This document shows, in pieces, positions 19,026 to 55,550 of a stretch of DNA of 64,000 nt; positions within the stretch are counted from its first letter, which is position 1; every line of letters starts with the position of its first letter. The stretch is from an uncultured Thermoanaerobaculia bacterium (GTDB taxonomy: Bacteria; Acidobacteriota; Thermoanaerobaculia; Multivoradales; Multivoraceae): the NCBI GenBank assembly GCA_951812325.1, contig OX638294.1, positions 1,138,527 through 1,202,526 of the forward strand, read 5' to 3'. Made by a program: the position numbers and the translations under genes. The notes below the pieces were generated by a model. The model searched no databases and had not been told where the DNA came from. It saw only the letters and a list, made by a program, of their open reading frames with translations.

Positions 19026-19110
19026 ACGCGCCAGGCAGCCGCTCCAGACGGGTGGCAGTCCGGGACCGCTCTCGCCTCGATTCGCGGGCTCTTGCCACGG
19101 GCTGCCTAAG

Positions 19111-34160: not shown

Positions 34161-35197
34161 ACCGCCAGGTCCCCGGCCTGGCCGGCGCCGGCGGCGGGCG
34201 GCGAAGAATCAGGGTACAGGTGGCAGGCGACGCGGGCCGGGCCGACCGCCTCGAGCAGAGGCTCCACGCGATTGCAGTGGTCGAGCGCCTTCGAACAGCG
34301 CGGGTGGAAGCGGCAGCCGGACGGCGGGTTGCGGACGCTCGGCACTTCACCGGCGATCAGGTGGTGCGCCCTCGCCGCCTCGACCACCGGATCCGGCGTC
34401 GGTACGGAGGCCAGGAGCGCCTCGGTGTACGGATGCCTCGGCCGCTCGAACAGCTCGTCCCGCGTCGCGATCTCGACGATCCGACCGAGGTACATCACCC
34501 CGACCCGGTCGCTGATGTGGCGCACGACGGACAGGTCGTGGGCGATGAACAGGTAGGTGAGACCCAGCTTCGCCTGCAGGTCCATCAGCAGGTTGAGCAC
34601 CTGCGCCTGAATCGAGACGTCGAGCGCCGACACCGCCTCGTCGCAGATCAGCAGATCCGGCTCGAGCGCCAGAGCCCGGGCGATGCCGATCCGCTGGCGC
34701 TGGCCGCCCGAGAACTGGTGCGGGTAGCGGTTGGCCATCGACGGCAGCAGGCCGACCAGGTCGAGCAGTTCCGCGACCCGCTCCCGGAAGCGGCGGCGAC
34801 TCCCCGCCACGCGGTGGACCTTGAGCGGTTCGCCGACGATCTCCCGCACCCGCATCCGCGGATTGAGCGACCCGAACGGATCCTGGAAGACCATCTGCAT
34901 CCGCCGGCGAAGCGGCCGCAGCCGGCGCTGGCTGGCCTCCGAGATGTCCTCGCCGTCGAAGACGATGCGGCCGGCCGTCGGTTCCAGCATGCGCAGGATC
35001 GCCAGCGCCGTCGTCGACTTGCCGCAACCGCTCTCCCCCACCAGGCCGAAGGTCTCGCCGCGCCTGAGATCGAACGACACCCCGTCGACCGCCTTGACGG
35101 ATCCCGTCCGCCGCCGCATCAGCACCCCTTCGGTGACCGGGAAGTGGACCTTGAGATCCTCGACGCGAAGCAGCACCCGGTTGGCGGCTGAACTCAC
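34157..35197 (-). CDS. oppF: Oligopeptide/dipeptide ABC transporter ATP-binding protein OppF/DppF-like
   Basis: [14 protein letters not shown].., Walker [18 protein letters not shown], and a C-terminal oligopeptide-ABC domain (CRFHPRC). The start is the GTG that overlaps a TGA inside repeat copy 1. The ORF track's longer N-terminus (to 35689) is frame-incompatible junk. Confidence 0.8.
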
Positions 35198-35534
35198 GGC
35201 GCGGATTCCGCCTCGTAGCCGTAACAGGCCCAGGCCCGCGAGCCGGCGGCGGCTTCGAGCGACGGCGGCGCCGCCAGGCAGCGATCGTGCGTGTACGGAC
35301 AGCGCGGCGCGAAGGCGCATCCCGCGGGCAGCGCGGCGAGGTCCGGCGGTTGACCCTCGGCGGCTGAACTCACGGCGCGGATTCCCCCTCGTAGCCGTAA
35401 CAGGCCCAGGCCCGCGAGCCGGCGGCGGCTTCGAGCGACGGCGGCGCCGCCAGGCAGCGATCGTGCGTGTAGGGACAGCGCGGCGCGAAGGCGCACCCCG
35501 CGGGCAGCGCGGCGAGGTCGGGCGGTTGACCCTC
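35183..35534. repeat. Tandem direct duplication, 2 x 176 bp (about 97% identical), spanning the oppD 3' end and the oppF start junction
   Basis: GGCGGCTGAACTCACGGCGCGGATTCC... occurs at about 35183 and again at about 35359. The copies differ at only about 5 positions. Copy 2 holds the true oppD C-terminus. Copy 1 holds a duplicate 57-aa C-terminal fragment plus the oppF GTG start. Confidence 0.85.
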
Positions 35535-36362
35535 GATCGAGTCGAGGCGGCCGCCGCATTCACCCTCCAGGCGCGGCACGGAGCGAAGCAGCCCCTGGGT
35601 GTAGGGGTGGCGCGGGTCGGCATAGAGGGCCGCCGCGGGCCCGCTCTCCACGATCCGGCCGCCGTACATGACCGCCACCCGGTCGGCATAGCGGGCGACC
35701 ACGCCGAGGTCGTGGGTGATCAGGATGAGCGCCGAATCCGCCTCCCGGGTGCGCTCCTTGAGCAGTTCCAGGATCTGCGCCTGCACCGTCACGTCGAGCG
35801 CCGTCGTCGGCTCGTCGGCGATCAGCAGGCGCGGATGGCAGGCGAGCGCCATCGCGATCATCACCCGCTGGCGCATGCCGCCCGAGAACTGGTGGGGATA
35901 GTCGCCAAGCCGCTTCGCGGCATCGGGAATGGCCACCGACTCAAGGTGTTCCACCGCCTGTTCGAGCGCCTCCCTCCGGCTGAGCCCGCGGTGCAGTCTC
36001 AGCGGCTCGGCGACCTGCCGGCCGATCGTCAGCACCGGATTGAGCGAGGACATCGGCTCCTGGAAGATCATCGCGATGCGGTTGCCCCGCACCGACCGGA
36101 TGCCGGCATCGTCGAGCGCGAGAAGGTCCTGACCCTCGAACAGGATCCTGCCGTTCTCGATTTGTCCCGGGTCGGGAATCAGCCGCAGGATGGAGAGCGC
36201 CGACACGCTCTTGCCCGAGCCGCTTTCGCCGACGATCGCCAGCGTCTCGCCCGGCGCGACCTCGAGCGACAGCGACGTCACCGCCCTGACCTTCGGCCGG
36301 TTGCCGAACCCGCCGCGGAAGGTGACGTCCAGATTCTCGATCCGGAGCAGAGGTTCCGTCAC
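35370..36362 (-). CDS. oppD: Oligopeptide/dipeptide ABC transporter ATP-binding protein OppD/DppD-like
   Basis: [38 protein letters not shown]..; C-terminal CAFAPRCPY motif. Confidence 0.85.
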
Positions 36363-36398: not shown

Positions 36399-36479
36399 GG
36401 CAGCCCGTGGCAGAAGTCGCGCTGCATTCGAGCGGCCAAGCATCCCGCCCGGCATCGTTGCTCCTCGGTCGAACATGGC
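36399..36479. repeat. About 80-bp conserved element (copy 1), in the oppA-oppD intergenic spacer
   Basis: GGCAGCCCGTGGCAGAAGTCGCGCTGCATTCGAGCGGCCAAGCATCCCGCCCGGCATCGTTGCTCCTCGGTCGAACATGGC is nearly identical to 40444-40524. Confidence 0.8.
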
Positions 36480-36496
36480 CGGGCGCCCCGCCGCCA

Positions 36497-40443: not shown

Positions 40444-40524
40444 GCAGCCCGTGGCAGAAGTCGCGCTGCATTCGAGCGGCCATGCATCCCGCCCGGCATC
40501 GTTGCTCCTCGGTCGAACATGGCA
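40444..40524. repeat. About 80-bp conserved element (copy 2), in the divergent region between oppB and the Uma2 gene
   Basis: Same sequence as 36399-36479 with 1-2 mismatches. It is immediately followed by TATAAT and the ATG of the Uma2 gene. Confidence 0.8.
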
Positions 40525-41979: not shown

Positions 41980-44328
41980 ATGATGGCCAGAAACACCGAC
42001 AACCGGCGCCGACGGCGACGCCCGCAATGCGTTCGATCGGCAGCGCTGATTGCCAGCGTGCTCGGCTGCACCCTCTTCCTGCCCGCCGGAAAACCGGCAG
42101 GCGCCCAGGAACCCGTCGACCGGGAACAGCCCTCGACCGCGGCCACGGTCGATCCGATCGACGCGATCCCCGGCATCTGGATTCGCGACGAACGGCTGAG
42201 CGAGGACCCGATCGAGAAGCTGGAGGAGGCCTACGGCCAGACCTTCGGCGGCGGGCCGGGCCGGTCGCCGGGCGCGAACCCGGGCAGCGGACGCACCGGC
42301 AGCTTCGGCCGCGGCGGCCAGGGCGGTTTCGGCGGCGGCCGCGGCCGCGGCGGATTCGGCCGTGGCTCGGGCAGACAGCCGGGCGGCACGCAGGACGGCC
42401 CGTCGGGGATGCGCGAGATGGCGCGGGACCTCGCGGAGCGCCTGGACGTGCTGCTGATCCGCATCGACGACCCCCAGGTCCTCATCCGCAACGCGAAGCG
42501 CGAGGACCGCATTCTCTTCCTCGACGGCCGCGAAATCGCCGACGGTTTCGGCGGTCGCAGCCGTGCCCGCCTGCTCGGCGACTCGCTCGAAGTGGAGACG
42601 TCCTCCCAGGGGCGGCAGCGGATCGAGACCTTCTACCTGGAGGCGGACCGGCTCGTCCTCGTGACCGACCTGCAGGGAGGACGCTTCGCCGATCTCTCCT
42701 TTCGTACCGTCTACGAGCGTTCAGGCGACGCGCCGCCCCCACCGACGCCGGCGCCCACGACCGCGGCCCGGGCAAACGACGCCGCTCCAGGACCCGACGC
42801 AGACGTTTTCGCCGCCGAAGGGAGCGAGGTCGGCGTCCCTGCCGACTTCAACAGGGCGGACCACCTGCCGCCGGTCCGAGGCGCCGCAGAGCGAGGGACG
42901 GAACGCGCCGACACCTCTCGCAGCGCCCGGCCGGCGACGATCCGCATTCTGCCGCCCGAGAAGGGCCACCGGGAACTCCTGAGCGGCCGCGTCCTCATCC
43001 AGACCCTCACGATCGACCCGCAGATCGCCGTCGTCGAGTTTCTGATCGACGGCGAGCCGGCGGCCCGGGTCACGACGCCGCCGTTCGAGGCGCGGGTCCG
43101 CCTCGCCGATCCGCCCCGCGAGCAGACCATCGAGGCCAGGGCAACGAGTGCCCGCGGCGCCCGCGCGGGAGCCGACCGGATCGTTGTGAACCGCCTCGAT
43201 CCCCCGTTCGCGGTGCGCATCACCGGCATCACTCCTGATGAGACCGGCGGCCGGGCAACCGTCCGCGTGGAGGCCGGCATCTCGGTGCCGCGCTCCGAAA
43301 CGCTGGAACGCGTCGAGTTCTACCGCACGGAACGGCTGGCCGCTTCGTTCGACGATTTCGAGGGCGAGGCCGGGCCCAGCGGCGTGCGCTCGCTGGCGGC
43401 CGACGTGCCGACCGCCGGCGTGTCGTCCGAGGACTTCGTCCGCGTCGTGGCGCGCCTCGGCGACGGCCGCGAGCTCGAAGACGTCGAACTGCTCCAGGGC
43501 GCCGAGTTCAGCAGCGAGATCGACGTCCAGCTCGTCCAGCTCCAGGTTCTGGTCGTCGACCGCGGCGGCAACCCCGTTGCCGGCCTCGGGCCCGAGGACT
43601 TCGAAGTCCGGGAGGACGGTGAGCCGCGCCAGGTGGAGAACCTCTACGTCTCGGACGACGTGCCCCTTTCGCTCGGTCTTGCGATCGACTCCTCCGGCAG
43701 CATGGAGCCCATCTGGCGGCAGACGAACGCGATCGCAGCGGCGTTCTTCGACGGCGCGCTGACCTGGCGCGACCAGGCGTTCCTGGTCGATTTCGACTCC
43801 ACCCTGCGCCTCGTGCAGCCACTCACCGGGAGCAAGCCGCTGCTGGCCCGCGGCCTGGAACGGCTCTTCCCGCAGGGCAAGACCGCCCTTCACGACGCAA
43901 TCCTGTTCTCGCTGCTCCAGTACGGCGACGCGCCGGGCCGGCGCGCCCTGGTCGTCGTCACGGACGGCTACGACTCGAACAGCCGCTCCGACCCCACCCG
44001 GGCGATCGACTTCGGCAAGCGCCTCGGCGTCCCCGTCTACGTCGTCGCCATGCGCTCCGTCGGATTCGGCCCAACGACGATGGAGGACGCGAACCTCCGC
44101 AACACCATGCGGCTGATCACGGGGCCGACCGGCGGCCGCCTGTTCCAGATCGAGTCGATCGACCAGATGGCGCGCGTGTTCGACCACATCGAGAAGGAAC
44201 TCCGGCGGCAGTACGTGCTGACCTACTACAGCGAGCGCCCGTTCGGCGCCGCCGTGGAACCCGACGTGCGCGTGCAACGGAAGGGGCTCAAGGTACGGAG
44301 CGCCCTGCCGCTTGGGGCGATCGAGTAG
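41980..44328 (+). CDS. Secreted multidomain protein with a C-terminal von Willebrand factor A domain (paralogue 1)
   Basis: Signal peptide after MMARNTDNRRRRRRP. Gly/Arg-rich low-complexity segment. Central beta-sandwich-like repeats. C-terminal VWA with a DxSxS MIDAS motif (LAIDSSGSM) and VVVTDG. Confidence 0.7.
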   Translation: MMARNTDNRRRRRRPQCVRSAALIASVLGCTLFLPAGKPAGAQEPVDREQPSTAATVDPIDAIPGIWIRDERLSEDPIEKLEEAYGQTFGGGPGRSPGANPGSGRTGSFGRGGQGGFGGGRGRGGFGRGSGRQPGGTQDGPSGMREMARDLAERLDVLLIRIDDPQVLIRNAKREDRILFLDGREIADGFGGRSRARLLGDSLEVETSSQGRQRIETFYLEADRLVLVTDLQGGRFADLSFRTVYERSGDAPPPPTPAPTTAARANDAAPGPDADVFAAEGSEVGVPADFNRADHLPPVRGAAERGTERADTSRSARPATIRILPPEKGHRELLSGRVLIQTLTIDPQIAVVEFLIDGEPAARVTTPPFEARVRLADPPREQTIEARATSARGARAGADRIVVNRLDPPFAVRITGITPDETGGRATVRVEAGISVPRSETLERVEFYRTERLAASFDDFEGEAGPSGVRSLAADVPTAGVSSEDFVRVVARLGDGRELEDVELLQGAEFSSEIDVQLVQLQVLVVDRGGNPVAGLGPEDFEVREDGEPRQVENLYVSDDVPLSLGLAIDSSGSMEPIWRQTNAIAAAFFDGALTWRDQAFLVDFDSTLRLVQPLTGSKPLLARGLERLFPQGKTALHDAILFSLLQYGDAPGRRALVVVTDGYDSNSRSDPTRAIDFGKRLGVPVYVVAMRSVGFGPTTMEDANLRNTMRLITGPTGGRLFQIESIDQMARVFDHIEKELRRQYVLTYYSERPFGAAVEPDVRVQRKGLKVRSALPLGAIE

Positions 44329-44348
44329 CCGGCGGGGAGCGAACGCCC

Positions 44349-46559
44349 GTGACGGCCACAGCACGACTTCGACACGTTCACGACCATCATGGATGGCGGC
44401 GGCGGTTCGCGTCGCTCCCGGTGAGGGCCACAACACCACCTCGACACGTTCTCGCCGGACGGATCCGATTTGCCGCGCTTGTCCTCGCCCTGTGCTTCCC
44501 GACCCTGGATCCGGTCGGCGCCCAGGATCCTTCGATACCGGACAGGCTTGACATGCAACTACTCGAACGGCTTCTGGATCTCGAAAACGCCCGCGACCCC
44601 TCCGGTGTCGGACAGGCTCGATCGCAGCTGCTCGACCGGCTTGCCGATCTGGCCGGTCCCTGGATCAGGAACGAGCAGGCGAGTGAGGATCCGCGCCTCG
44701 AGGTCGAGCGAATGGGGCTCGCACCGGAGGACGCTTCGCCGACGGTCCACGAACTGGCGGAGGCCCTCGCCGACCGCTACGGCACGGTCATGATCCGGCT
44801 TTTCGAAGACGCCGTGGCGCTTCTCGACAGTCGCGGAGGCACGCGGGTCCTGTCCCTCGACGGCCGCCGGCATCCCCTCGGCCGCGGCGTCGGCGGGCGC
44901 GTTCTCGAGACCGAGGACAGACTGGCGATCAAGATGGTCGGCGCGGGTTGGCAACGTCTCGATGCCTTCTTCAAGCAGCAGGGCCGGCTCGTACGGACAA
45001 CCGAGCTCGTGGTCCGTTCGCAACCCTCGGTGAAGTTCCGCACGATCTACGACCGTCCGCAGGGCGATGCCGCCTCGGATCCGCGCCATGCCCGGTCTCG
45101 CGGCTCGGCCCCGTCGACCGCCCTCCGGATCGTGCCGCCGGACCGGAGGTTAGGCGAACGGCTGCGCGGCAGAGTCGAAATCCAGACCCTGATCATCGAT
45201 CCGCTGGTCGCTGAGGTGGAGTTCTTCCTCGACGGCAAACGGATCAGGCGAGCCAGGAGGCCGCCGTTCACGACCCGCATCGTCCTCGCCGACCCGCCTC
45301 GGGAACAGAGGCTCGAAGCTCTGGCCCGGGACCGGGAAGGCTCGTACCGCGGCAGCGACGAGATCGTCCTGAACCAGATCGACAGGCTGTTTGCCGTCCG
45401 CCTTGCGCAAATCCGGAGCGTGCAGGCGAACGGGGTTCCCGCGATCCGGGTTGCCGCCTCCGTTTCCCTGCCGGGCTCGGCGACGCTCCAGCGGGTCGAG
45501 TTCTACCGCAGCGAGCATCTCGTGGCGACACGGCACAGCTTCGACGGAGAAGGAACGCCCGGCACGGCCCGGACCGTTGCCGTCGAGGCGTTGATCGAGG
45601 AAGGACGGCCGGACGACTTCATCCGCGTCGTGGCCAGGCTCGCCGACGGCCGCGAGCGGGAAGACGCGAAACTCCTGCAGGGAAGCGAGATCGACATCCG
45701 GCTGGTTCAGTTTCAGGTGCTGGTGACCGACCACGACGGGAATCCCGCCGGCCGGCTCTCGCCGGAGCACTTCGCCATCCGGGAGCAGGGGATGGAGCCC
45801 CGGGCCGTCGACGTCCACACCGCCAGGGACGTTGGTCTCGTTCTGGGTCTGGCGATCGATTCGTCCGACAGCATGCTGCCTACGTGGGGCCGCCTGAAAC
45901 AGATCGCCCGCGGCTTCCTCCGCTCCACACTGACACCGGGCGACCGGGCCTTCCTCGTCGACTTCGACGACACCGTGAGCCTCGCGCAACCACTGACCGG
46001 AGACCGGCAGCTGCTGTCCGCGCGGCTCGACCGCCTGATTCCGTTCGGCGGCACGGCTCTGAACGACGGCCTGCTGTTCGCCCTGCTCCAGTACCGCCGG
46101 GAGCCCGGCCGCCGCGCTCTCATCGTCGTCACGGACGGCTTCGATGAGCACAGCCGCTCCCGGCCCCATCAGTCCACCGACCTGGCAAGGCGCCTGGGGC
46201 TACCGATCTACTTCATCGAACTCGATGCCGCGGCCGAATCCGCAGCGACGTCGATCGACGGTTTCGTTGCCGCCAACCCCACGTCAGGACGGCAACGGCG
46301 CCAGGCGCGGAAACGGCTCATCGAGATCAGCGAACAGACCGGCGGTCGCCTCTTCCACATCGCAGTCGACGCCGGCACGACCGGATGGACCGACCGCATC
46401 AGAGAGGTCTTCGATCTGATCGAAGCGGATCTGCGGCGCCAACACGTGCTGACGTACTACAGAACCGAGCCGCTCGGCACGCCGATCGAGCCGGAGATCC
46501 GGATGACCCGTCAAGATCTCAAGCTGCGGAGCGTCGTGCCTCTCGAAGCGATCCAGTAG
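44349..46559 (+). CDS. Secreted multidomain protein with a C-terminal von Willebrand factor A domain (paralogue 2)
   Basis: Same architecture. LAIDSSDSM and IVVTDG. The central region aligns with paralogue 1 (RVEIQTLIIDPLVAEVEFFLDGK.. versus RVLIQTLTIDPQIAVVEFLIDGE..). Confidence 0.7.
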   Translation: MTATARLRHVHDHHGWRRRFASLPVRATTPPRHVLAGRIRFAALVLALCFPTLDPVGAQDPSIPDRLDMQLLERLLDLENARDPSGVGQARSQLLDRLADLAGPWIRNEQASEDPRLEVERMGLAPEDASPTVHELAEALADRYGTVMIRLFEDAVALLDSRGGTRVLSLDGRRHPLGRGVGGRVLETEDRLAIKMVGAGWQRLDAFFKQQGRLVRTTELVVRSQPSVKFRTIYDRPQGDAASDPRHARSRGSAPSTALRIVPPDRRLGERLRGRVEIQTLIIDPLVAEVEFFLDGKRIRRARRPPFTTRIVLADPPREQRLEALARDREGSYRGSDEIVLNQIDRLFAVRLAQIRSVQANGVPAIRVAASVSLPGSATLQRVEFYRSEHLVATRHSFDGEGTPGTARTVAVEALIEEGRPDDFIRVVARLADGREREDAKLLQGSEIDIRLVQFQVLVTDHDGNPAGRLSPEHFAIREQGMEPRAVDVHTARDVGLVLGLAIDSSDSMLPTWGRLKQIARGFLRSTLTPGDRAFLVDFDDTVSLAQPLTGDRQLLSARLDRLIPFGGTALNDGLLFALLQYRREPGRRALIVVTDGFDEHSRSRPHQSTDLARRLGLPIYFIELDAAAESAATSIDGFVAANPTSGRQRRQARKRLIEISEQTGGRLFHIAVDAGTTGWTDRIREVFDLIEADLRRQHVLTYYRTEPLGTPIEPEIRMTRQDLKLRSVVPLEAIQ

Positions 46560-46764
46560 CAGATGCTCGCGTTCTTCACCTTCTGGTTGCTCATGTCGAT
46601 CGCGTTCCTGGTCCTGATCATGGTCGACCAGGTGCGCGACCTCCGGCCGCCAAAGGACCGGAAGACACGGTGGTCCTGGCCGAGCCGAATCAGGAAACCG
46701 CAGAAGATGCGGCGTGGCGGAAGCGCCATCGACAGACAAGCGTCAGCAACAGGAAACAGATCGA

Positions 46765-48897
46765 ATGGCCCGGAGTGATGGGAAGAACACCGCGATGCGC
46801 TTGAGCCGGTCCGTAGCCGTCGAACGTCACGAGGAGCCGGGACTTGGAGTCGTCGGCGCGATCTGGATCGACAATCCGCCGGTCAACGCTCTGAGCCAGC
46901 ACGTGCGCGAGGGCCTCGCGGCGGCGGTGCCGGCAGTAGCCGACGATCCCGAGATGCAGGCCGCCGTGATCGTCTGCCGCGGCCGGACCTTCATCGCCGG
47001 CGCCGACATCCGCGAGTTCGGCAAGCCGCGGTTGCCCCCGGACACGAACGAAGTCCGTCGGATGATCGAGAAGTCACCCAAGCCGTTCGTCGCCGCAATC
47101 CACGGAACCGCGCTGGGCGGCGGACTGGAGATGGCGATGGCCTGCCACTTCCGGGTCGCCGACGCCAACGCACGGCTCGGCCTGCCCGAGGTCAAGCTCG
47201 GCATCCTGCCGGGCGGCGGCGGCACCCAGCGCCTGCCCCGCCTGGTCGGCGTACCGCGAGCGCTCGAGATGGTCACGAGCGGAGAACACATCACCGCAGC
47301 CGAAGCGCTGGACCTGGGCCTGATCGACGGCGTCGTCGATCGCCTCGCAAACACGAGTCCGGCTGTCGGCGCGTTCCGTTTCGCGCTCCGCGCCGTGGCC
47401 GAGGGCCGCGGCCTTCCCCGGGTCCGCGACATCGAGAGCCACCGCGCCGCCGTGCGGGAGAACCCGGGGATCTTCAGCGACTTCCGCCGCCGGATCGCCC
47501 GCAGGATCCGCGGGTTCAACGCTCCCGAGGTTTGCATCCAGTGCATCGAGGCGGCGGCCGAACTGCCGTTCGACGAGGGCCTCCTGCGGGAAGCGGAGCT
47601 GTCGCGGCAACTCCACGCGGACCCGCAGTCGCGGGCCCAGCGCTACTACTTCTTCGCCGAGCGAGCGGCGCGCAAGATCCCCGACGTTCCTGCGGACACG
47701 CCGGTTCGGGAGGTTGCCAGGGTCGGCGTCCTCGGCGCCGGCACGATGGGCGGCGGCATCTCGATGGCCTTCGCCAACGCCGGCCTGCAGGTTCAGATCG
47801 TCGAGCAGAGCCGCGAGGCGCTCGACCGGGGTCTCGCCACCGTGCGGCGCAACTACGACCGCAGCGCCTCCCGCGGACGCTTCACCCAGGAACAGGTCGA
47901 GGAGCGGATGGGCCTTCTTGCGGGCGGCACGGACCGGGACGCGCTCGCCGAATGCGACCTGGTGATCGAGGCCGTGTTCGAGGACATGGAGCTGAAGAAG
48001 AAGGTGTTCGCGGGACTCGACCGGATCGTCAGACCGGGCGCGTTGCTGGCAACGAACACGTCGTACCTCGACGTGAACGAGATCGCCGGCGAGACAAAAC
48101 GGCCCGAGGACGTCGTGGGCATGCACTTCTTCAGCCCCGCCAACGTGATGAAGCTGGTCGAAGTCGTTCGCGGCGAGAAGTCCGCGCCGGACGCGATCGC
48201 GACCGCCATGTCGATCTCCCGAACGATCGGCAAGGTTCCGGTTCCGGTCGGCGTCTGCCACGGCTTCGTCGGCAACAGGATGCTCTTCCAGCGCCGACTG
48301 CAGGCGGACCGCCTCGTGCTCGAGGGAGCGCTGCCCTGGGACATCGACCGCGTGCTCTACGACTTCGGCATGCCGATGGGGCCGTTCCGGATGAGCGATC
48401 TGGCAGGACTCGACGTGGGCTGGAACGCGGCGACATCGTCGTCCAGCACGTTGCGCGAGATGCTCTGCGAGCGCGACCGGCGGGGCCGGAAGACGGGCCG
48501 CGGCTACTACGTCCACGACTCGGCGACACGAGCCGCGGCGCCCGACCCGGAGGTGCTGGACCTCGCCCGGGAACTGGCCGAGCGGCTCGGCATCGAACAG
48601 CGCGAGATCGACGACGAGGAGATCCTGAACCGCTGCCTGCTCTCCTCCGTCAACGAAGGAGCGAAGATCCTCGAAGAGGGCATCGCGCTGCGCGCCAGCG
48701 ACATCGACGTCATCTGGATCAACGGCTACGGCTGGCCCGTCTACCGAGGCGGCCCCATGTTCTGGGCCGACGAGTTCGGCCTCGACAAGATCACGGGCAT
48801 CCTCGACGACTACGCCGCCCGCTTCGACCCCGACCAGTGGCGGGCTGCGCCGTTGCTCCGGGAAACCGCCGCTGACGGCGGCCGGCTCAGCGGCTAG
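46765..48897 (+). CDS. fadJ: Fatty-acid oxidation complex alpha subunit: enoyl-CoA hydratase plus 3-hydroxyacyl-CoA dehydrogenase (FadJ/FadB-like)
   Basis: N-terminal crotonase fold (GGGLEMAMACHFRVA) and a central NAD-binding motif GVLGAGTMGGGISMAFANAG. The start is uncertain among GTG 46714, ATG 46765 and ATG 46795. Confidence 0.85.
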   Translation: MARSDGKNTAMRLSRSVAVERHEEPGLGVVGAIWIDNPPVNALSQHVREGLAAAVPAVADDPEMQAAVIVCRGRTFIAGADIREFGKPRLPPDTNEVRRMIEKSPKPFVAAIHGTALGGGLEMAMACHFRVADANARLGLPEVKLGILPGGGGTQRLPRLVGVPRALEMVTSGEHITAAEALDLGLIDGVVDRLANTSPAVGAFRFALRAVAEGRGLPRVRDIESHRAAVRENPGIFSDFRRRIARRIRGFNAPEVCIQCIEAAAELPFDEGLLREAELSRQLHADPQSRAQRYYFFAERAARKIPDVPADTPVREVARVGVLGAGTMGGGISMAFANAGLQVQIVEQSREALDRGLATVRRNYDRSASRGRFTQEQVEERMGLLAGGTDRDALAECDLVIEAVFEDMELKKKVFAGLDRIVRPGALLATNTSYLDVNEIAGETKRPEDVVGMHFFSPANVMKLVEVVRGEKSAPDAIATAMSISRTIGKVPVPVGVCHGFVGNRMLFQRRLQADRLVLEGALPWDIDRVLYDFGMPMGPFRMSDLAGLDVGWNAATSSSSTLREMLCERDRRGRKTGRGYYVHDSATRAAAPDPEVLDLARELAERLGIEQREIDDEEILNRCLLSSVNEGAKILEEGIALRASDIDVIWINGYGWPVYRGGPMFWADEFGLDKITGILDDYAARFDPDQWRAAPLLRETAADGGRLSG

Positions 48898-49304
48898 CCG
48901 GGAGGGGCCGACGTGTCCCTGCGGCGGTTCGCGGTCGCCGTCCGCGGTTGTTGCGCTCCAGGAAGAGGGCGAAGCGGCCGTTGCCGGAGCCGAGATCGAC
49001 GACGCGCAGCAGGCAGGCCGTGAGCCCTGCCGCGGCGCCATCCCGGCCATCCACCCGGGCGCCGGGTACGGTCAAAGTGACCGGCATGGCGGCGGTAGAA
49101 GTCCAGCTTGATCTGGCAGAGGGCGGCCTGGGTTGACGTGTCCATCCGGAAGAGATCGGGGCCGGCAAGCCATGGCTTGCCTGGCATCTGGCGGCGCCGG
49201 TGGCGCCGGGGTGTGGGACGCACCCGGACGGCGACGGTCCGTTGCCGGACCGCCGCCGCATGCGGCTGGCTCGTCCTCAGGAGTTCCGGGGACGAGCCGG
49301 ATCG

Positions 49305-52067
49305 CTATTCCTCGGCCTGCCGGCGCAGGTGGGGCACGATGCCGATGAGCCGTGCGACGTGGTGCTCGAACAGCGTGCCGTCGTCCGCCTCGTCCGCGTC
49401 CACGCCGACCGGGACCGCCGCCGCGGGGCCGTCCAGCAGGTCTCTGCAGACCAGCGGCGCGACGGCCGCGTTCCGCGGGCCGTCGACCCAGTACCAGCCG
49501 CCCGGCCTGGCGCCCTGGACGGACACCTCGCTGGCGATCGGATTGCCGGCGGCGTCGGTGCAGGAGTTGCTGTCCTCGCGCAGCAGCTGGACGACCAGGC
49601 CGTCATCGTTCGCCTGCAGCGTCTGCGTCGTGGTCTCGCCGCTGCAGGTGGTCCGCCACTCGACGGACTCGCCGTCGGTCGGCTTGACGACGATGCCGCC
49701 GGCGCCCCGCCAGTACGGTTTGACGTACTCGCTGCAGACCCCGTCATCGGGCTTCGGCAGGTGCGGCACGATGCCGATCAGCCGTGCGACCTCGTGTTCG
49801 AAGAACGTGCCGTTGTCCGTCACCTCCGTCTCCACGCCGGCGGGAATCGTCGCCACGGCGCCGCCCAGGTCGACTTCGGAGACCAGCGGCGCGACGGCGG
49901 CGTTCCGCGGGCCGTCGATCCAGTACCAGCCGCCGGGCTCGATGTCCGTGACCGACACCTCGCTGCGGACGGCATTCCCGTCATCGTCCGTGCACGCGCC
50001 CCGGCGCACCAGCTGGACGATCAGGCCGTCGTCGTTGGCATACAGCGTCTCCGTCGTGCGGGCGCCGCGGCAGGACATCCGGAACTTCACGGAAAGGCCG
50101 TTGGCCGGCTTGACGACGATGCCGCCGGTGCCCCGGAAGTACGGCGCCACGAACCGGTTGGGATCAAGCGGCTCCGGTTCCGGTTCGGGATCGGGGTCCG
50201 AGTCGGGATCGGAGTCGGGATCGGAGTCGGGATCGGGGTCGGGTTCCGGGGGAGGGGGACAATCGGGCGCCGGAGCCACGTCGTTGATCGTGGCCTCGGC
50301 GATCCACTTGTAGCTCCAGAGTACGTCGACCGGGCTCTTTACTTCGCTGCCGTCGGGGGTGACGTCGACCGAGTATGACTCCGTGGCCTCGACGCTGAAC
50401 GTCTCCGACCCTTCGTTGGCGCAGTCGGTGCGGGCGGCCAGCTCAATCGTCCCCGTTGTCGAGGTGAGGGAACTGCCAATCGACCCAAGCCTCACGGTGG
50501 CCGAGGTCGTGGCGGCGTAGTCTTCACTCGTGGCCGTGCCTTCCTCGGTGGCGTAGACCACCTCCAGAGGAGGCGCCCCGCTGATCTGGGGGAAAACCGA
50601 GTAGCTCACGTCGAAGCTCAGATCCGTCCCTTCGTCCCCCTGCGCGTCGTCGACGCCAAGACACGAGTAGACGCTCAGGTCGCCGTTGTTCCGCCGCGTC
50701 GTCGTGGCGGACGGCAGGTTCCCCGTGAGACTCGTCTCGCACAGGGACAGATGCTGCAGGTTGGTCAGGGTGCCGAGGCTGGAGGGAATGGCGCCGGTAA
50801 AGCCGTTCGACCCGAGGAGGAGGTGCGTGATGCCCGTGGCGGCGGTCGCGTTGTTGATGTTCCCGGTCATCTTGTTGCCGCGGAGGTTGAGCACCCTCAT
50901 GCCGGTGCTGGTGATGCTGGGGATGCCCCCGGTCAAGCTGTTGAAATGGGCCGAGATCTCTTGCAGGTTGTTGCCGGTTGGCAGGGCCGGGATGGCCCCT
51001 GTCAACTTGTTGTCGTTGACGACGAGCTGCTTCAGTTTCACTAGGGTGGACAGGGCGGGGATTTCCCCGGTCAGGTTGTTGCCGACGCCTCTCCCGTCGA
51101 ATCGGAAGTTGTTGCCCACATTGAGACGCTCCAGTCTCACGAGGGCGGACAGATCGGGGATTCCCCCGGTCAGGTTGTTGTCGTTGAGATCGACCTCCCT
51201 CAGGAAGATGATGCCGTTCAACGGCGGGATGCTCCCGGTGAACTTGTTCCTGCCGAGAGCGAGCCACGTCAGGCTGCTGACGTTGGTAATCGCTCCGATC
51301 TCCCCGGTCAGCGCGTTTCTGCTGAGATCGAGTGTCGCCAGGTCGTGGAGGCCGCTGGGATTGGGGAACTCCCCGGTCAGCTCGTTGTCGTTGAGAAGCA
51401 CATGGATCAGGGCGGTGAGGCCGCTCAACGACGGGATGGACCCGGTCAGCTCGTTGTTGTCGAGAAAGATACGCTCCAGGCTGGTCAGGGCGCTCAGATT
51501 CGGGATTTCCCCGGTCAGGGCGTTCCCACTGAGCCTGAGGTACGTCAGATTGGTCAGGTTGCTGAACGATGCGGGGATTCCCCCGGTGAACTTGTTTCTC
51601 CGGAGGTCGAGGTGCGTCAGGTTGGTCAGCGCGCCCACCCACGCCGGGATCGGCCCGGGGGTGAGGTTGTTGTAGGTGAGCCGGAGATACGTGAGTGCGT
51701 CGAGGGCGCTCAGATCGGGGAGCGTCCCCGTAATGTTGTAGCCAGGGCCGAGCGTGAGCCGGGTGACGCGGCTCCTTTCGCCGTTCATGCCGATCGATTG
51801 CCACCGATGCATGCCCCTGTTGCGCGCCCAGTTCAGGCTCGTGTTGTCGCCCGAGCCGAGAGTCAGCGCGGCCTTGAAGGCCAGCAGGGCGGTGCAGTCG
51901 GCAGCCAGCATGTCCCGCTTGGCGTTGCTCAGAGTCCTGCTCCCCACGGCCCCAATGACGGCTACGTCGCCCCTCACGCAGGTTGGCGACGTCTGGGCGT
52001 GGGACGCGCCGCCGAACAGGCCGAGCGCCAGCGCCAGGACGAGGACCTTGAGCACCAGACCCGGCAC
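49305..52067 (-). CDS. Secreted leucine-rich-repeat protein (plant-specific-type LRRs) with two tandem C-terminal repeat domains and an Asp/Pro-rich linker
   Basis: 920 aa. Signal peptide. About 17 repeats of 24 residues, LxxLxxLxLxxNxLTGxIPxxL (for example LTNLTYLRLSGNALTGEIPNLSAL). Linker PEPDPDPDSDPDSDPDSDPDPEPEPEP. Two roughly 140-aa C-terminal repeats (YFRGTGGIVVKP... and YWRGAGGIVVKP...). Confidence 0.8.
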   Translation of the reverse strand: MPGLVLKVLVLALALGLFGGASHAQTSPTCVRGDVAVIGAVGSRTLSNAKRDMLAADCTALLAFKAALTLGSGDNTSLNWARNRGMHRWQSIGMNGERSRVTRLTLGPGYNITGTLPDLSALDALTYLRLTYNNLTPGPIPAWVGALTNLTHLDLRRNKFTGGIPASFSNLTNLTYLRLSGNALTGEIPNLSALTSLERIFLDNNELTGSIPSLSGLTALIHVLLNDNELTGEFPNPSGLHDLATLDLSRNALTGEIGAITNVSSLTWLALGRNKFTGSIPPLNGIIFLREVDLNDNNLTGGIPDLSALVRLERLNVGNNFRFDGRGVGNNLTGEIPALSTLVKLKQLVVNDNKLTGAIPALPTGNNLQEISAHFNSLTGGIPSITSTGMRVLNLRGNKMTGNINNATAATGITHLLLGSNGFTGAIPSSLGTLTNLQHLSLCETSLTGNLPSATTTRRNNGDLSVYSCLGVDDAQGDEGTDLSFDVSYSVFPQISGAPPLEVVYATEEGTATSEDYAATTSATVRLGSIGSSLTSTTGTIELAARTDCANEGSETFSVEATESYSVDVTPDGSEVKSPVDVLWSYKWIAEATINDVAPAPDCPPPPEPDPDPDSDPDSDPDSDPDPEPEPEPLDPNRFVAPYFRGTGGIVVKPANGLSVKFRMSCRGARTTETLYANDDGLIVQLVRRGACTDDDGNAVRSEVSVTDIEPGGWYWIDGPRNAAVAPLVSEVDLGGAVATIPAGVETEVTDNGTFFEHEVARLIGIVPHLPKPDDGVCSEYVKPYWRGAGGIVVKPTDGESVEWRTTCSGETTTQTLQANDDGLVVQLLREDSNSCTDAAGNPIASEVSVQGARPGGWYWVDGPRNAAVAPLVCRDLLDGPAAAVPVGVDADEADDGTLFEHHVARLIGIVPHLRRQAEE
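49335..50170. repeat. Intragenic tandem duplication, 2 x about 420 bp (about 75% identical), encoding the two C-terminal repeat domains of the LRR protein
   Basis: GCAGGTGGGGCACGATGCCGATGAGCCGTGCGAC... at about 49335 and GGCAGGTGCGGCACGATGCCGATCAGCCGTGCGAC... at about 49755. Confidence 0.7.
50170..50265. repeat. 12-bp microsatellite-like repeat (GGGATCGGAGTC)n encoding the (DPDS)n linker
   Basis: GGGATCGGGGTCCGAGTCGGGATCGGAGTCGGGATCGGAGTCGGGATCGGGGTCGGGTTCCGG. Confidence 0.7.
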
Positions 52068-52155
52068 GTGGGCCGACTGCCGGAACCGACGCTCAAGGAG
52101 CGTGAGAAGCGTTCGGCGACGATCAACTCCGGCAGCCTGTGGTGAAAGTCGTCCT

Positions 52156-52172
52156 TGGGGGGGGGGGGGGGG
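52156..52172. repeat. Homopolymeric G17 tract (C17 on the minus strand) about 90 bp upstream of the LRR-protein gene start
   Basis: TCCTTGGGGGGGGGGGGGGGGGCGGGGGAGG: 17 consecutive G, then C, then 5 G. This is extreme even for a 70% GC genome. Confidence 0.7.
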
Positions 52173-52536
52173 CGGGGGAGGACGACGAGGCCGGGATTCG
52201 ATCTGGAGCTTGATCCATCACGCTCTCCTTGAAGGCAGGTACTCGAAGGCAGGTAGTCGTGGCGCCAGGATGGCCGGTGATCCGCAGGGTCACCTTCTCG
52301 CCGCCGCGGTTGGGGAGCTGGCTGGCTGGCTGCGAGCAGAGGAACGAGCGACGCCGCTCTTCAGGCAGGGGGAGTTTAGCTTGTCTTCGTCCAAACGCAG
52401 AAGTGCTTGATTTTGCTGGGCTAACGCCAGGCGGCGGCGCGCGACGCTCGCTCCGAGGCCGCCGGGACCCCACTCCCCTCAGGTGGCCCTGCGCGGGCGA
52501 CGAACCCGGTCCGGACCTCGCTGCTACTGTTCGTCG

Positions 52537-54534
52537 ATGCTCAGCCAGAGGTGTTGTCGGGTGAGGTGGCTGCCGGTCGGGCTTGCGCTGGCGGTCGGCG
52601 GCGCGGCTTTGGCCCAGGAGCCTCTGGACACGGACTGGCCGGTGACCACGGGCAACAACGCGAGTCAGCGGTACGCGCCGCTTGAGCAGATCGATCGGGA
52701 CAACTTCGGGGAGCTCGAGGTCGCCTGGCGATGGTCGTCGCCGGACAACGAGTTGATGACCGGGGATGGCGCAACGGGCGGGCGGCGCATGACGCCGCGA
52801 AACCACGAGGCGATTCCGATCAAGGTGGGCGACCGGCTCTACGTGACGACCGGCTACGGGCAGATCGCGGCGATCGATATCGAGCGGGGGAAGAGCTCCT
52901 GGACCTACGATCCGAAGGCCTACGTTCACGGCCGGCCGACGAACCTCGGCTTCACCCACCGGGGCGCCTCGTACTGGAAGGACCCGGACCTGCCCGGCGA
53001 AGGCGGCCGGCTGGTGTGGGCTGGAGGCGACTCCTTCCTGCGGGCGGTCGACACGCTGAGCGGCGAACCGATCGCGTCGTTCGGAGACGGCGGCGCCGTG
53101 GACCTCACCCTCGGTCTGCACCGGGAGGTGTCGCGCCGGGTCTACAGCGTGAGTTCGCCGGTCACGCTGTGCCGCGACGTGGCGATCGTCGGTTCTTCGA
53201 TCTCGGACGGTCCGCGCGCGCCGGAGGCGCCGCCTGGGGACGTGCGCGGATTCGACGTCCGCACCGGGGAGCAGCTCTGGACCTTCCACTCCGTCCCGCA
53301 GGAGGGGGAACCCGGGCGCGATACGTGGGAGAACGGTTCGTGGAAGGTCAGCGGCAACACGAACGTATGGACCCTGATGAGTGCGGACCCGGGGCTCGGC
53401 CTCGCCTACCTGCCGTTCGGAACGCCGACCAACGACTGGTACGGCGGGCATCGCCTCGGCGACAACCTCTACGCCGAGTCGCTCGTCGCGGTCGACTGCG
53501 AGACCGGTGAGCGGCGCTGGCACTTCCAGACGGTCCACCACGGCCTGTGGGACTACGACCTGCCGACGCCGGCGATCATCGGCGACATCGAGGTCGAGGG
53601 CCGGTCGATCCGCGCGGCGATGCAGCTCTCCAAGCAGGGCTTCCTCTACGTCTTCGACGCCCGCACCGGCGAAGACGTCTGGCCGATCCTGGAGCGCGAA
53701 GTGCCGCAGACCGGCATTGTCGGCGAGCGGACATCGCCGACGCAGCCCTTCCCCACCAGGCCGCCGGCCTTCGAACGCCAGGGCATCGGCCCGGACGATC
53801 TGATCGACTTCACGCCGGAACTCCGCGCCGAGGCGATGGCGATTCTCTCCCGGTACCAGTACGGCCCGATGTTCACGCCGCCCACGGAACGCGGCACGTT
53901 CCTGATGCCCGGCTACGGCGGCGGCGCGAGCTGGCCCGGCGGCGCGTTCGACCCGGAGGCCGGCATGCTCTACGTGCCGTCCTTCACCTGGCCCGTGGTC
54001 AACACGCTGCGCAAGCCGGACCCGAGCCGGTCGTCCTTCGACTACGTCGGCCGCATCAACAGCGATGTCCGCGGGCCCCGCGACCTGCCCCTGGTCAAGC
54101 CGCCCTACTCCCGGATCACCGCCTACGAGATGAACCGCGGCGAGATCGCCTGGACCGTGCCCCTGGGCTACGGCCCGCGGCGCCATCCGGACCTGGCCGC
54201 GCTCGACCTGCCGCCGCTCGGTTCGGGCGCCCGCGGCCACGTCGTGGCGACGAAGACGCTCCTGTTCGTGACCGCCGGCCGGTCGCTCGCCTTCCGCGGG
54301 ATCGACCGGGAGGCCACGGCCGAGGGCGCGGTACGCGACGACTGGCGGGTCGAGACGCCGGCGCTGCGGGCGTTCGACAAGGCGACGGGGGAACTCGTTG
54401 GCGAAATCGAGCTGCCGGCGCACACCGACGGCAGTCCGATCACCTTCCTGCATCGCGGCCGGCAATACCTGGTGTTCGCGCTCGGCGGACGCGGCGCGCC
54501 GTTCGAGCTGATCGCCTACCGGCTTCCGGCCTGA
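52537..54534 (+). CDS. PQQ-dependent dehydrogenase (quinoprotein, glucose/alcohol dehydrogenase-like), periplasmic
   Basis: Signal peptide MLSQRCCRVRWLPVGLALAVGGAALAQEP. Repeated W-containing propeller motifs (WAGGDSFLRAVD, WTFHSV.., WHFQTVHHGLWDYD). Confidence 0.8.
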   Translation: MLSQRCCRVRWLPVGLALAVGGAALAQEPLDTDWPVTTGNNASQRYAPLEQIDRDNFGELEVAWRWSSPDNELMTGDGATGGRRMTPRNHEAIPIKVGDRLYVTTGYGQIAAIDIERGKSSWTYDPKAYVHGRPTNLGFTHRGASYWKDPDLPGEGGRLVWAGGDSFLRAVDTLSGEPIASFGDGGAVDLTLGLHREVSRRVYSVSSPVTLCRDVAIVGSSISDGPRAPEAPPGDVRGFDVRTGEQLWTFHSVPQEGEPGRDTWENGSWKVSGNTNVWTLMSADPGLGLAYLPFGTPTNDWYGGHRLGDNLYAESLVAVDCETGERRWHFQTVHHGLWDYDLPTPAIIGDIEVEGRSIRAAMQLSKQGFLYVFDARTGEDVWPILEREVPQTGIVGERTSPTQPFPTRPPAFERQGIGPDDLIDFTPELRAEAMAILSRYQYGPMFTPPTERGTFLMPGYGGGASWPGGAFDPEAGMLYVPSFTWPVVNTLRKPDPSRSSFDYVGRINSDVRGPRDLPLVKPPYSRITAYEMNRGEIAWTVPLGYGPRRHPDLAALDLPPLGSGARGHVVATKTLLFVTAGRSLAFRGIDREATAEGAVRDDWRVETPALRAFDKATGELVGEIELPAHTDGSPITFLHRGRQYLVFALGGRGAPFELIAYRLPA

Positions 54535-54767
54535 CCCGTTCAGGCGTCCTGGCCACCGCTCCGGGCACACCGCATCCCGGCCAGCGAGACCGAAGAGAAG
54601 CACGAGGAGAAACAGGATGAGAACGACGGCGCCTGCACGCGGGACGCGACCTGCTCCGTCCACGTGCCGATGCCGGACGGCGTCGGCATATCGCCGTCGA
54701 CAGATCCGCTTGCATGGCGCCCGCAGGACCTCGTCGGCACCGAGGCCGCGGCGTTCCGCGACTGGGT

Positions 54768-55550
54768 CTACGAGACTCCGTCCGACCCGTTCATCACCAG
54801 CGTCCACAATCGACAGGCAGCAGCGCCGTTTGTACCGCCAGCATCGCAGGCGCCAGCATCGCAGGTGATCGCGTAGCAGCCGACCAGGGTTGCCGCTACG
54901 CCAGCATCGCGGTCGATCGTCGCACGCAGCCGCAGGTCTCCGCTGCGCTTTGTGCCCTTCGCGCCGTCCCGCCGCTTGAGTTCGACATCCGAAAACCCGA
55001 GCACACGGCGGTGGACTGGAAACAGCGCCTTGTACGCGCTCTCCTTGGCCGAGAACGCGAGCGTGAACATCTCCTCCCTGGTCAGGCCGCCGTTCTCGCC
55101 GCAACGGAGTTCCAGTTCCCGATCGGTCAACACCCGCGGTCCGAGACGCGAAGCCTGATCCGCCGAAACGACTCGTTCCACGTCGACGCCGAGGCCCCGG
55201 CAGCGGTGCGCGGCCACGACCGCCGCGAAGCCGAAGCCGGCGCCGTGGGAAATCGAGCCGACCACGCCTTCCGGCCACAGCGGGACATCGTCGTCGTCCG
55301 CGGCGACATCGCCCTCGGCAACGGCGGTCCCCAACAGGTCCGACAGCGCGCGCGCCGCGCTGATGCGACCCGCCAGATACTCGCGGCGACGCTTCTCGAT
55401 GGCGCCTTCCAGGGAAGCAGGCAGAGCGATCCCCAGGCGCTCCGCCTCGGCGCCGAGGTCCTCGAGCCGGCCGATCCGCTGCGCCGCCGTGCTGATGTGG
55501 CGAGGAAGGTGGCGCGCCAGGCCGGGAGGAACTCCGTTGGCGGCTTTCAC
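54768..55550 (-). CDS. Sfp/EntD-type 4'-phosphopantetheinyl transferase
   Basis: PLWPEGVVGSISHGAGF and FSAKESAYKAL motifs. The GTG start at about 55550 overlaps the upstream stop; the ORF track's longer N-terminus overlaps the DCC gene. Confidence 0.65.
   Translation of the reverse strand: MKAANGVPPGLARHLPRHISTAAQRIGRLEDLGAEAERLGIALPASLEGAIEKRRREYLAGRISAARALSDLLGTAVAEGDVAADDDDVPLWPEGVVGSISHGAGFGFAAVVAAHRCRGLGVDVERVVSADQASRLGPRVLTDRELELRCGENGGLTREEMFTLAFSAKESAYKALFPVHRRVLGFSDVELKRRDGAKGTKRSGDLRLRATIDRDAGVAATLVGCYAITCDAGACDAGGTNGAAACRLWTLVMNGSDGVS

Follow-up and report, generated by a model that had tools for sequence, protein, structure and literature searches.

The window analysed here, a stretch of 64,000 nucleotides from an uncultured Thermoanaerobaculia bacterium (GenBank contig OX638294.1, positions 1,138,527 to 1,202,526), contains a minus-strand gene for a secreted leucine-rich repeat (LRR) protein with a run of 16 cytosines close to its 5' end, which we propose as a candidate on/off switch of translation. 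The gene and its immediate surroundings (about 300 nt upstream and 400 nt downstream) form a cassette between a gene for a FadB-like protein and a divergently oriented gene for a pyrroloquinoline quinone (PQQ)-dependent dehydrogenase (PQQ-DH). In relatives with 93% identical flanks, compared at L012 5624-5928 and in L013, the cassette is absent, and the FadB-like gene is followed directly by that for PQQ-DH. The LRR cassette is, by this comparison, a lineage-specific insertion. The coordinates of all these features are collected in the Table.

Table. Features of the LRR locus. Positions are those of the window unless one of the orthologous contigs, L011 or L017, is named.
Feature	Position	Strand	Remarks
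LRR cassette, 3.6 kb	48899..52518	-	gene with flanking sequence
Whole LRR gene	49305..52218	-	970 aa if C15, 971 aa if C18; +1 nt out of frame in the assembly
LRR open reading frame as it stands	49305..52067	-	920 codons from the first in-frame GTG
Family-conserved ATG start of LRR gene	52216..52218	-	from in-frame leaders of homologues
Shine-Dalgarno-like AAGGAGAG	52223..52230	-	4 nt ahead of ATG (GGAG core 6 nt ahead)
Homopolymer, G16 on plus strand, C16 on coding strand	52157..52172	-	codons 16-21 of the LRR gene, counted from ATG 52218
Insertion of about 40 nt in conserved leader, CCCG-C16-AAGGACGACTTTCACCACAGG	52137..52176	-	from DNA and protein alignments; boundaries uncertain to within a few nt
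Perfect 8-bp inverted repeat, GTCGTCCT / AGGACGAC	52148..52186	.	around the tract
TGA ending the 31-codon frame from ATG 52218 at C16	52123..52125	-	
PQQ-dependent dehydrogenase gene	52537..54534	+	divergent neighbour; likely start ATG 52537 rather than GTG 52483
Allele CCCCT+C19	L017 7090-7113		
Allele C21, then AAGACG	L011 1658-1678		

The LRR protein combines plant-type LRRs and a Sec-type signal peptide with a Pro/Asp-rich linker and an unannotated beta-sandwich domain, present twice, which resembles lectins or carbohydrate-binding modules. Its membership of a secreted LRR family is indicated by Pfam domains above threshold (LRR_4 at 3e-30, LRR_1 and LRR_8), together with an N-terminal signal peptide, recognised by eye from an h-region ending in an ASHA/Q site. 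The family is multi-copy, with at least four members, the closest paralogues among them, on one 4.63-Mb contig (P0001, P0002, P0003 and P0007) and six copies in the loci of the CATOTG01 metagenome-assembled genome (MAG), the source records of which name an uncultured Thermoanaerobaculia. One homologue, P0001, is 94% identical to the window protein over the C-terminal 284 aa (window 49305-50160), whereas central parts are much less conserved, with overall identities of about 78% to P0001 and about 60% to other paralogues, and LRR numbers differ by blocks. This mosaic relationship among P0001-P0010 suggests gene conversion or recombination inside the family. Such a product, combining a signal peptide, LRRs and beta-sandwich domains within a mosaic family, fits the usual targets of phase switches. 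The linker is encoded by an in-frame hexanucleotide repeat, (D/E/S-P)n in translation, at 50185-50248, and it is there that most substitutions within the LRR gene cluster when the window is compared with two orthologous contigs, L011 and L017.

The interpretation of the tract depends on where this gene begins. The original prediction had placed the tract about 90 bp upstream of the LRR start, because it used a mechanical list of open reading frames (ORFs) that starts the LRR ORF at GTG 52067 (minus strand, 920 codons). The distance is correct for this first GTG within the ORF, but not for the start that the family conserves. The equivalent of GTG 52067 is CTG in the paralogue L001, and it is therefore not a conserved start; no Shine-Dalgarno-like motif was found ahead of it, and the LRR frame is open further upstream, through the tract, to about 52222. 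By contrast, nine of the ten best homologues have an in-frame leader at the equivalent of ATG 52218, with eight reading M[DHR]xxxDRI and that of P0003 being divergent, while the tenth (P0008), annotated from an internal Met, has that ATG in frame at the DNA level. Most of these leaders read MDQAPDRIPASSSS..GVDRRRR..SRQSAH ahead of the signal peptide, and in eight homologues the sequence is M-D-Q-A-P-D-R-I-P-A-S-S-S-S-T-[IL]-G-V-D-R-R-R-R-...-S-R-Q-S-A-H-V-P-R-L-V-L-K-V-L-G-L-A-L-A-L-G-L-F-G-G-A-S-H-A-Q-T or a close variant. On the minus strand, ATG 52218 is preceded by AAGGAGAG-CGTG, and a Shine-Dalgarno motif of the AAGGAG type is present in five of six aligned paralogous 5' regions (L001 being without a clear one), just as other long ORFs in the window have starts led by such motifs. 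In DNA alignment the CATOTG01 paralogues have their 5' untranslated region (UTR), ATG and leader in common with the window, and the insertions and deletions (indels) among seven aligned paralogue 5' ends, from the leader to the start of the mature protein, are all multiples of three.

Family conservation hence points to ATG 52218 as the probable LRR start. As this conserved codon is upstream of the tract, the tract would lie inside the gene, 46 nt downstream of the ATG. It is 365 nt upstream of the PQQ-DH start, and does not sit in the divergent spacer shared with that gene, as had been claimed, since the spacer extends from 52219 to about 52536. Nor were the anticipated -35 and -10 elements found, there being no sigma-70-like hexamer pair in 51900-52700; a scan of the same interval for promoters and terminators also found nothing. 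A promoter-spacer switch, of the type represented by Bordetella fim, Neisseria porA/opc and Mycoplasma vlp, where a tract separates the -35 element or an activator site from the -10 element upstream of the transcription start, is consequently not supported, with the tract downstream of both the conserved Shine-Dalgarno motif and ATG, and flanked by no -35/-10 pair. For these reasons the mechanism proposed here is a translational frameshift switch, rather than an alteration of -35/-10 spacing. What survives of the original prediction is a hypermutable, switch-like tract, the length of which decides whether the LRR ORF is read from the conserved start.

The homopolymer is real and far beyond chance expectation. 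It had been described as 17 nt (52156-52172) and directly followed by CGGGGG; the long uninterrupted run and the sequence after it are as described, but position 52156 is T, leaving 16 nt in the plus-strand context ...GTCGTCCTT-G16-CGGGGGAGGACGAC.... The window has a G+C content of 68.2%, with next longest runs of six (G) and seven (C), and the expectation per window under a first-order Markov model is 3e-5 for G runs and 2e-4 for C runs of at least 16 nt. Across 178 kb of related loci, the only runs exceeding 8 nt are this same tract, in two orthologous contigs. C16/G16 is also well above the length of about 7-8 nt or more that marks a homopolymer as a hypermutable repeat. The tract is contained in an insertion without counterpart in any paralogue, the corresponding sequence being ACCCTC, or CCCCTC in L003, and the inserted sequence other than the homopolymer is unique within the window. 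This insertion is all that separates two frames of the leader (MDQAPDRIPASSSSPAPPPPQGR...), the first 14 residues of which (MDQAPDRIPASSSS) are in the frame of ATG 52218, with GVDRRR...SAHVPGLVLK... (GVDRRR...RQSAHVPGLVLKVLVLALALGLFGGASHAQT) in the LRR frame. The inverted repeat that brackets the tract could be a remnant of the insertion event. A role for this repeat as a functional hairpin was dropped, as the RNA fold of the leader region is not stabler than shuffled sequence (z-score -0.34).

The consequences of tract length were determined by replacing the number of C residues in silico, and reading the product from ATG 52218. With C12, C15 or C18 there is a single ORF of 969, 970 or 971 aa, reaching the family-conserved C-terminus, whereas C13, C16 and C19 yield 30-32 aa, and C14, C17 and C20 yield 80-82 aa. 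Given the start deduced from family conservation, length changes other than multiples of three thus truncate the product, to 31 or 81 rather than 970 aa. The window's ORF has no lesion besides one nucleotide in the tract, such that C16 is one base from an intact gene. Between the tract and the signal peptide, the window lineage also differs from all paralogues by two indels separated by 39 nt, one +1 (A) and the other -1 (C) (52078-52120, minus strand, after GVDRRR), a compensated frameshift that replaces RRRRSSRCSSVGS with RRRTLLTLLERRF before the frame is restored.

The tract also varies in length between closely-related haplotypes. L011 and L017 both belong to ENA assembly ERZ18545498, under names (atg000847l and atg000640l) that we take to be hifiasm-style, and their shared assembly hints at co-occurring variants. 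L017 is 98.9% identical to window 43560-54584, with 101 substitutions and only five indels in 11 kb, one of which is a 10-nt difference at the tract (GTC-GC-CTCCCCCG-CCCCT-C19-AAGG, against GTC-CTCCCCCG-C16-AAGG in the window). L011 is 98.2% identical to window 47361-53816, and differs from L017 by 0.5%. Its exact tract length is less certain, because many +/-1 indels in short C/G runs, probably errors for the most part, occur near the end of this contig, where the PQQ-DH gene is broken. Three haplotypes 0.5-1.2% apart hence have three tract structures (C16, C21 and CCCCT+C19) within the same insertion and between flanks nearly free of indels, which supports a tract that is hypermutable in practice, as had been predicted from its length. 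Further alleles did not emerge from PQQ-DH orthologues at 95% amino-acid identity (L012-L015), since these are without the LRR cassette; a scan of JGI metagenomes with a 21-mer of the conserved leader returned a single chance match, on an unrelated contig (L016), and exact-protein look-ups of P0001, P0002 and the window PQQ-DH, with two alternative starts, returned no record.

The ORF downstream of this variable tract appears to be constrained. By Nei-Gojobori counts against L017, the ratio of nonsynonymous to synonymous polymorphism (pN/pS) of the LRR ORF is 0.23 (6 nonsynonymous and 9 synonymous differences; p = 0.005 against neutrality), with values of 0.28 for PQQ-DH and 0.26 for the FadB-like gene on its flanks, and against L011 it is 0.35 (p = 0.02). 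These small counts suggest that the LRR ORF is under purifying selection at a level similar to that on the neighbouring housekeeping genes. As all three haplotypes already carry the tract, this constraint would have operated in its presence.

Combining these observations, we propose that the tract is an intragenic contingency locus, situated in the leader of a secreted LRR protein, after the conserved start and ahead of the signal peptide. Slipped-strand mispairing at replication would add or remove C residues; at a length of 15, 18 or 21, in the window's flanking sequence, the LRR ORF would be in frame with ATG 52218 and the tract would encode a short proline run, whereas with all other lengths translation would end after 31 or about 81 codons. 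Only lengths compatible with multiples of three would let ribosomes that initiate at ATG 52218 reach the signal peptide and LRR domains, and the window allele would be OFF by one base. Such phase variation would be reversible, frequent and adaptively used. The locus has the repeat length, intragenic position and between-strain polymorphism by which contingency loci are recognised structurally, but no ON/OFF pair was found among the three haplotypes, and as a full functional claim we advance this reading tentatively, as possible and somewhat short of probable. A broader proposition is that a Thermoanaerobaculia bacterium, probably associated with a marine invertebrate, randomly switches one member of a eukaryote-like LRR family by means of a poly-C tract that originated de novo where a C-rich codon pair of the shared leader underwent insertion and expansion; this is conceivable, and we regard it with some doubt.

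Several observations weigh against translational switching. Firstly, none of the three haplotypes is in frame in its assembled sequence, with ATG-to-GTG distances of 151, 155 and 161 nt (1, 2 and 2 modulo 3). Under random phase, three OFF alleles would be seen with probability (2/3)^3 = 0.30, such that switching is neither supported nor excluded by this count. Secondly, no in-frame (ON) allele was found among these three haplotypes or in the protein database, although their absence does not exclude ON alleles, because the sample is too small. Thirdly, the LRR ORF of L017 contains another frameshift, a 1-nt deletion from G5 to G4 at window position 51584. Fourthly, substitutions in the paralogue leaders are without third-position bias, and codon-position analysis detected no third-position excess even in the signal-peptide part, meaning that constraint on the leader at the protein level is not demonstrated. 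Fifthly, the low pN/pS could come from gene conversion by intact paralogues. Finally, the exact lengths of homopolymers of 16-21 nt are unreliable in any sequencing chemistry.

A rival reading is a paralogue in decay, in which the insertion and its runaway homopolymer have inactivated a recently inserted LRR copy, leaving the tract to drift without consequence while the gene becomes a pseudogene. All three alleles being out of frame would fit such a history, as would the additional deletion in L017, and the cassette is a lineage-specific extra copy whose function several intact paralogues could cover. However, the window ORF is undamaged but for the one nucleotide in the tract, the compensating +1/-1 indels downstream of it keep the leader joined to the LRR frame, and pN/pS values of 0.23-0.35 are significantly non-neutral and like those of the housekeeping neighbours, a selection signal that argues against a long-dead pseudogene. 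We regard decay as unlikely, while taking it seriously.

The frameshift could instead be a product of consensus calling, with a true tract of C15 (or C18), in which case the gene would simply be intact and its leader would contain a proline-rich insertion. Indel errors in long-read consensus sequences fall mainly in long homopolymers, which are hard for Illumina too; a single-base change would restore the frame, and L011 has many +/-1 errors in short C/G runs. Yet elsewhere the window appears accurate, as does L017, judging from intact ORFs and the few indels that separate them, and the alleles differ by 5-10 nt plus an internal T, which is beyond noise of one base. A miscall is improbable on this evidence, and even if it had occurred, the repeat would remain intragenic and hypermutable.

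An effect through the 5' leader would require translation from GTG 52067, just ahead of the signal peptide, with the tract then lying in the 5' UTR, inside an upstream ORF (uORF). Tract length would set where the uORF ends, either 56 nt ahead of the GTG or overlapping it, and expression would be graded via coupling, occlusion, or a G-quadruplex (G4) or poly-C structure. The ORF from this GTG does encode a complete Sec-type signal peptide (MPGLVLKVLVLALALGLFGGASHA/QT), gene callers chose the GTG start in L017 (P0269), and purifying selection despite three out-of-frame alleles would be explained; part of the geometry assumed in the original prediction would also be recovered. These points are countered by the poor credentials of the GTG as a start, given the missing Shine-Dalgarno-like motif and the CTG in L001, and by the upstream ATG being in frame in all paralogues, mostly with a Shine-Dalgarno motif where the DNA was read. 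With neither a sigma-70-like promoter around the tract nor a fold stabler than shuffled sequence, we consider such an effect quite improbable.

Selection on out-of-frame alleles would likewise be reconciled if RNA polymerase or the ribosome slipped on the C run, so that each allele yielded some in-frame product, and the run is far longer than the 8-9-bp RNA:DNA hybrid. Frame rescue has been described for poly(A) tracts of the insect endosymbiont Buchnera, in work cited by a study of Listeria (PMC2831843). However, in transcriptome-wide data from E. coli and Buchnera slippage insertions were confined to A/T runs, with G/C runs reported as not prone to slippage, albeit for runs up to 9-11 nt only (PMC5574713). 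Furthermore, the alleles here would need different corrections (-1/+2 as opposed to +1/-2), and no fixed shift would serve them all. Rescue by slippage is accordingly very improbable, and a programmed transcriptional slippage or recoding site is not supported, with lengths of 1, 2 and 2 modulo 3 entailing differing shifts, and the run being G/C rather than A/T.

Two-colour chemistry is known to produce artefactual poly-G where there is no signal, but such an origin, raised as a caveat to the original prediction, or a chimeric join, is effectively refuted, since the run is internal, its unique flanks are each homologous to the family leader, which they carry on in the proper sequence, two independently assembled contigs with single-nucleotide differences of their own contain this insertion and tract as well, and a run shorter than the usual assembly k-mers must presumably have been spanned by reads.

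The upstream region of the LRR gene contains further repeats. A 14-nt tandem duplication (CTTGAAGGCAGGTA / CTCGAAGGCAGGTA) at 52228-52255 lies directly upstream of the LRR Shine-Dalgarno motif, with L011 having five additional bases inside it. A tetranucleotide repeat (plus strand GCTGGCTG x2; (GCCA)n on the coding strand) lies at 52317-52332, some 100-115 nt ahead of the LRR start codon, and is present in about four copies in the window, three in L011, L017, L003 and L004, and two in L002b; it could be a second polymorphic simple sequence repeat (SSR) of the shared upstream region. Inside it, TGGCAG-N5-xxGC resembles the spacing of sigma-54 -24/-12 elements. A segment elsewhere in the window (19105-19248) is 87-92% identical to sequence 150-300 nt upstream of several CATOTG01 LRR paralogues (L003, L004 and L005). 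It falls at the 5' end of an unannotated 429-codon ORF (17955-19244, minus strand) with no Pfam match, and may be part of a gene or element that often adjoins LRR copies.

LRR copy number is itself a structural variant between haplotypes about 1% apart, as L011 (9400-13200) contains an additional LRR paralogue (P0010) and material of a VWA-domain gene relative to window positions of about 44150-44350, both of which are missing from the window and L017. Beyond the PQQ-DH gene, the relatives L012-L015 have a RES/Xre toxin-antitoxin pair that is absent from the window (about 54610-54791). The window also contains a 176-bp tandem duplication at 35183-35535 (2.0 copies, 97% identical), and an 80-bp dispersed repeat at 36401-36480 and 40445-40523, with one further copy in L004 (97-99% identical). 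Scans of the whole window for tRNAs and Rfam families gave no match.

The related proteins come from MAGs with names pointing to sponge hosts, and from these organism names and the literature it is inferred that the window organism, too, is probably associated with a marine invertebrate. Acidobacteriota of reef invertebrates have been reported as the group most enriched in eukaryote-like proteins (PMC13083261). Eukaryote-like repeat proteins, whether containing LRRs, ankyrins or other repeats, are the leading candidates for mediating the recognition of bacteria by their sponge or coral hosts and vice versa. In our search of the literature, nothing was found that connects SSR phase variation to sponge symbionts. 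If switching were confirmed at the level of reads, this locus would provide a concrete example of an uncultured symbiont in which one member of a family is turned on and off stochastically. It also carries a practical lesson, as annotation pipelines call the LRR gene from an internal GTG or as fragments, as in L011 and L017, and its family-conserved start and frameshift need manual curation.

Among known systems, the closest analogue is the 5' poly(A) tract of inlA in Listeria monocytogenes, where A7 is in frame and A6 leads to an 8-aa peptide (Orsi et al. 2010, PMC2831843). Both genes encode a secreted or surface LRR protein and have a homopolymer within a few codons of the start, with one length in frame and a neighbouring length giving a very short peptide; in both, alleles are polymorphic among closely-related strains, and include a variant interrupted by a substitution (A2GA4 in inlA, CCCCT+C19 here). 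However, the inlA run consists of 6-7 A residues, rather than 16-24 C residues, and the tract described here is in a lineage-specific insertion of one paralogue of a multi-copy family. Moreover, ON alleles and a switching rate have been measured for inlA, whereas the three haplotypes here provide only out-of-frame alleles, and the LRR proteins are not orthologous, those in the window being plant-type.

In base composition, the closest parallels are the intragenic tracts of tcfA and bapC in Bordetella pertussis, the genome of which is about 67% G+C. Homopolymeric tracts are found in tcfA, bapC and BP3651, as well as in fim promoters, of that species (Gogol et al. 2007, PMC1891110), and share with the window's tract a poly-C/G composition, a high-GC genome, polymorphism among strains and, in some cases, an intragenic position in genes for secreted or surface proteins. 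The fim tracts are situated in promoters, as the original prediction had supposed for this locus, whereas the tract here is intragenic, and within-culture variation was shown directly in Bordetella, compared with variation between haplotypes here. A coding-sequence C run in a high-GC bacterium is also subject to reversible frameshifting at the 7C tract of glpK, one of several homopolymer phase variants in Mycobacterium tuberculosis (PMC10334774; bioRxiv 10.1101/717272), although that gene is metabolic, its tract is short and the case has been proven experimentally, in contrast to the long tract in a secreted LRR protein gene proposed here from sequence comparison.

Contingency loci were characterised on a different scale in Neisseria, Haemophilus, Campylobacter and Helicobacter, which have dozens of tracts per genome, usually of 8-14 nt, against a single tract of 16-24 nt in about 240 kb here. 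Those loci (including hmbR/hpuA, PMC3786947, and the Campylobacter genes reviewed in PMC8355987) resemble the LRR gene in having an intragenic G/C homopolymer near the 5' end; the genes concerned encode host-interaction proteins, and their translation is switched ON and OFF by slipped-strand mispairing (PMC3786947, PMC8355987). The poly-G contingency genes of Neisseria and Campylobacter serve as the paradigm for such loci. Their hosts differ, as these species are vertebrate pathogens, rather than uncultured Thermoanaerobaculia that are probably associated with marine invertebrates. The mechanism is a textbook one, and the lineage is what is new in this candidate case. If correct, it would extend contingency-locus phase variation, known mainly from the pathogens and commensals of vertebrates, to the effector-like proteins of symbionts.
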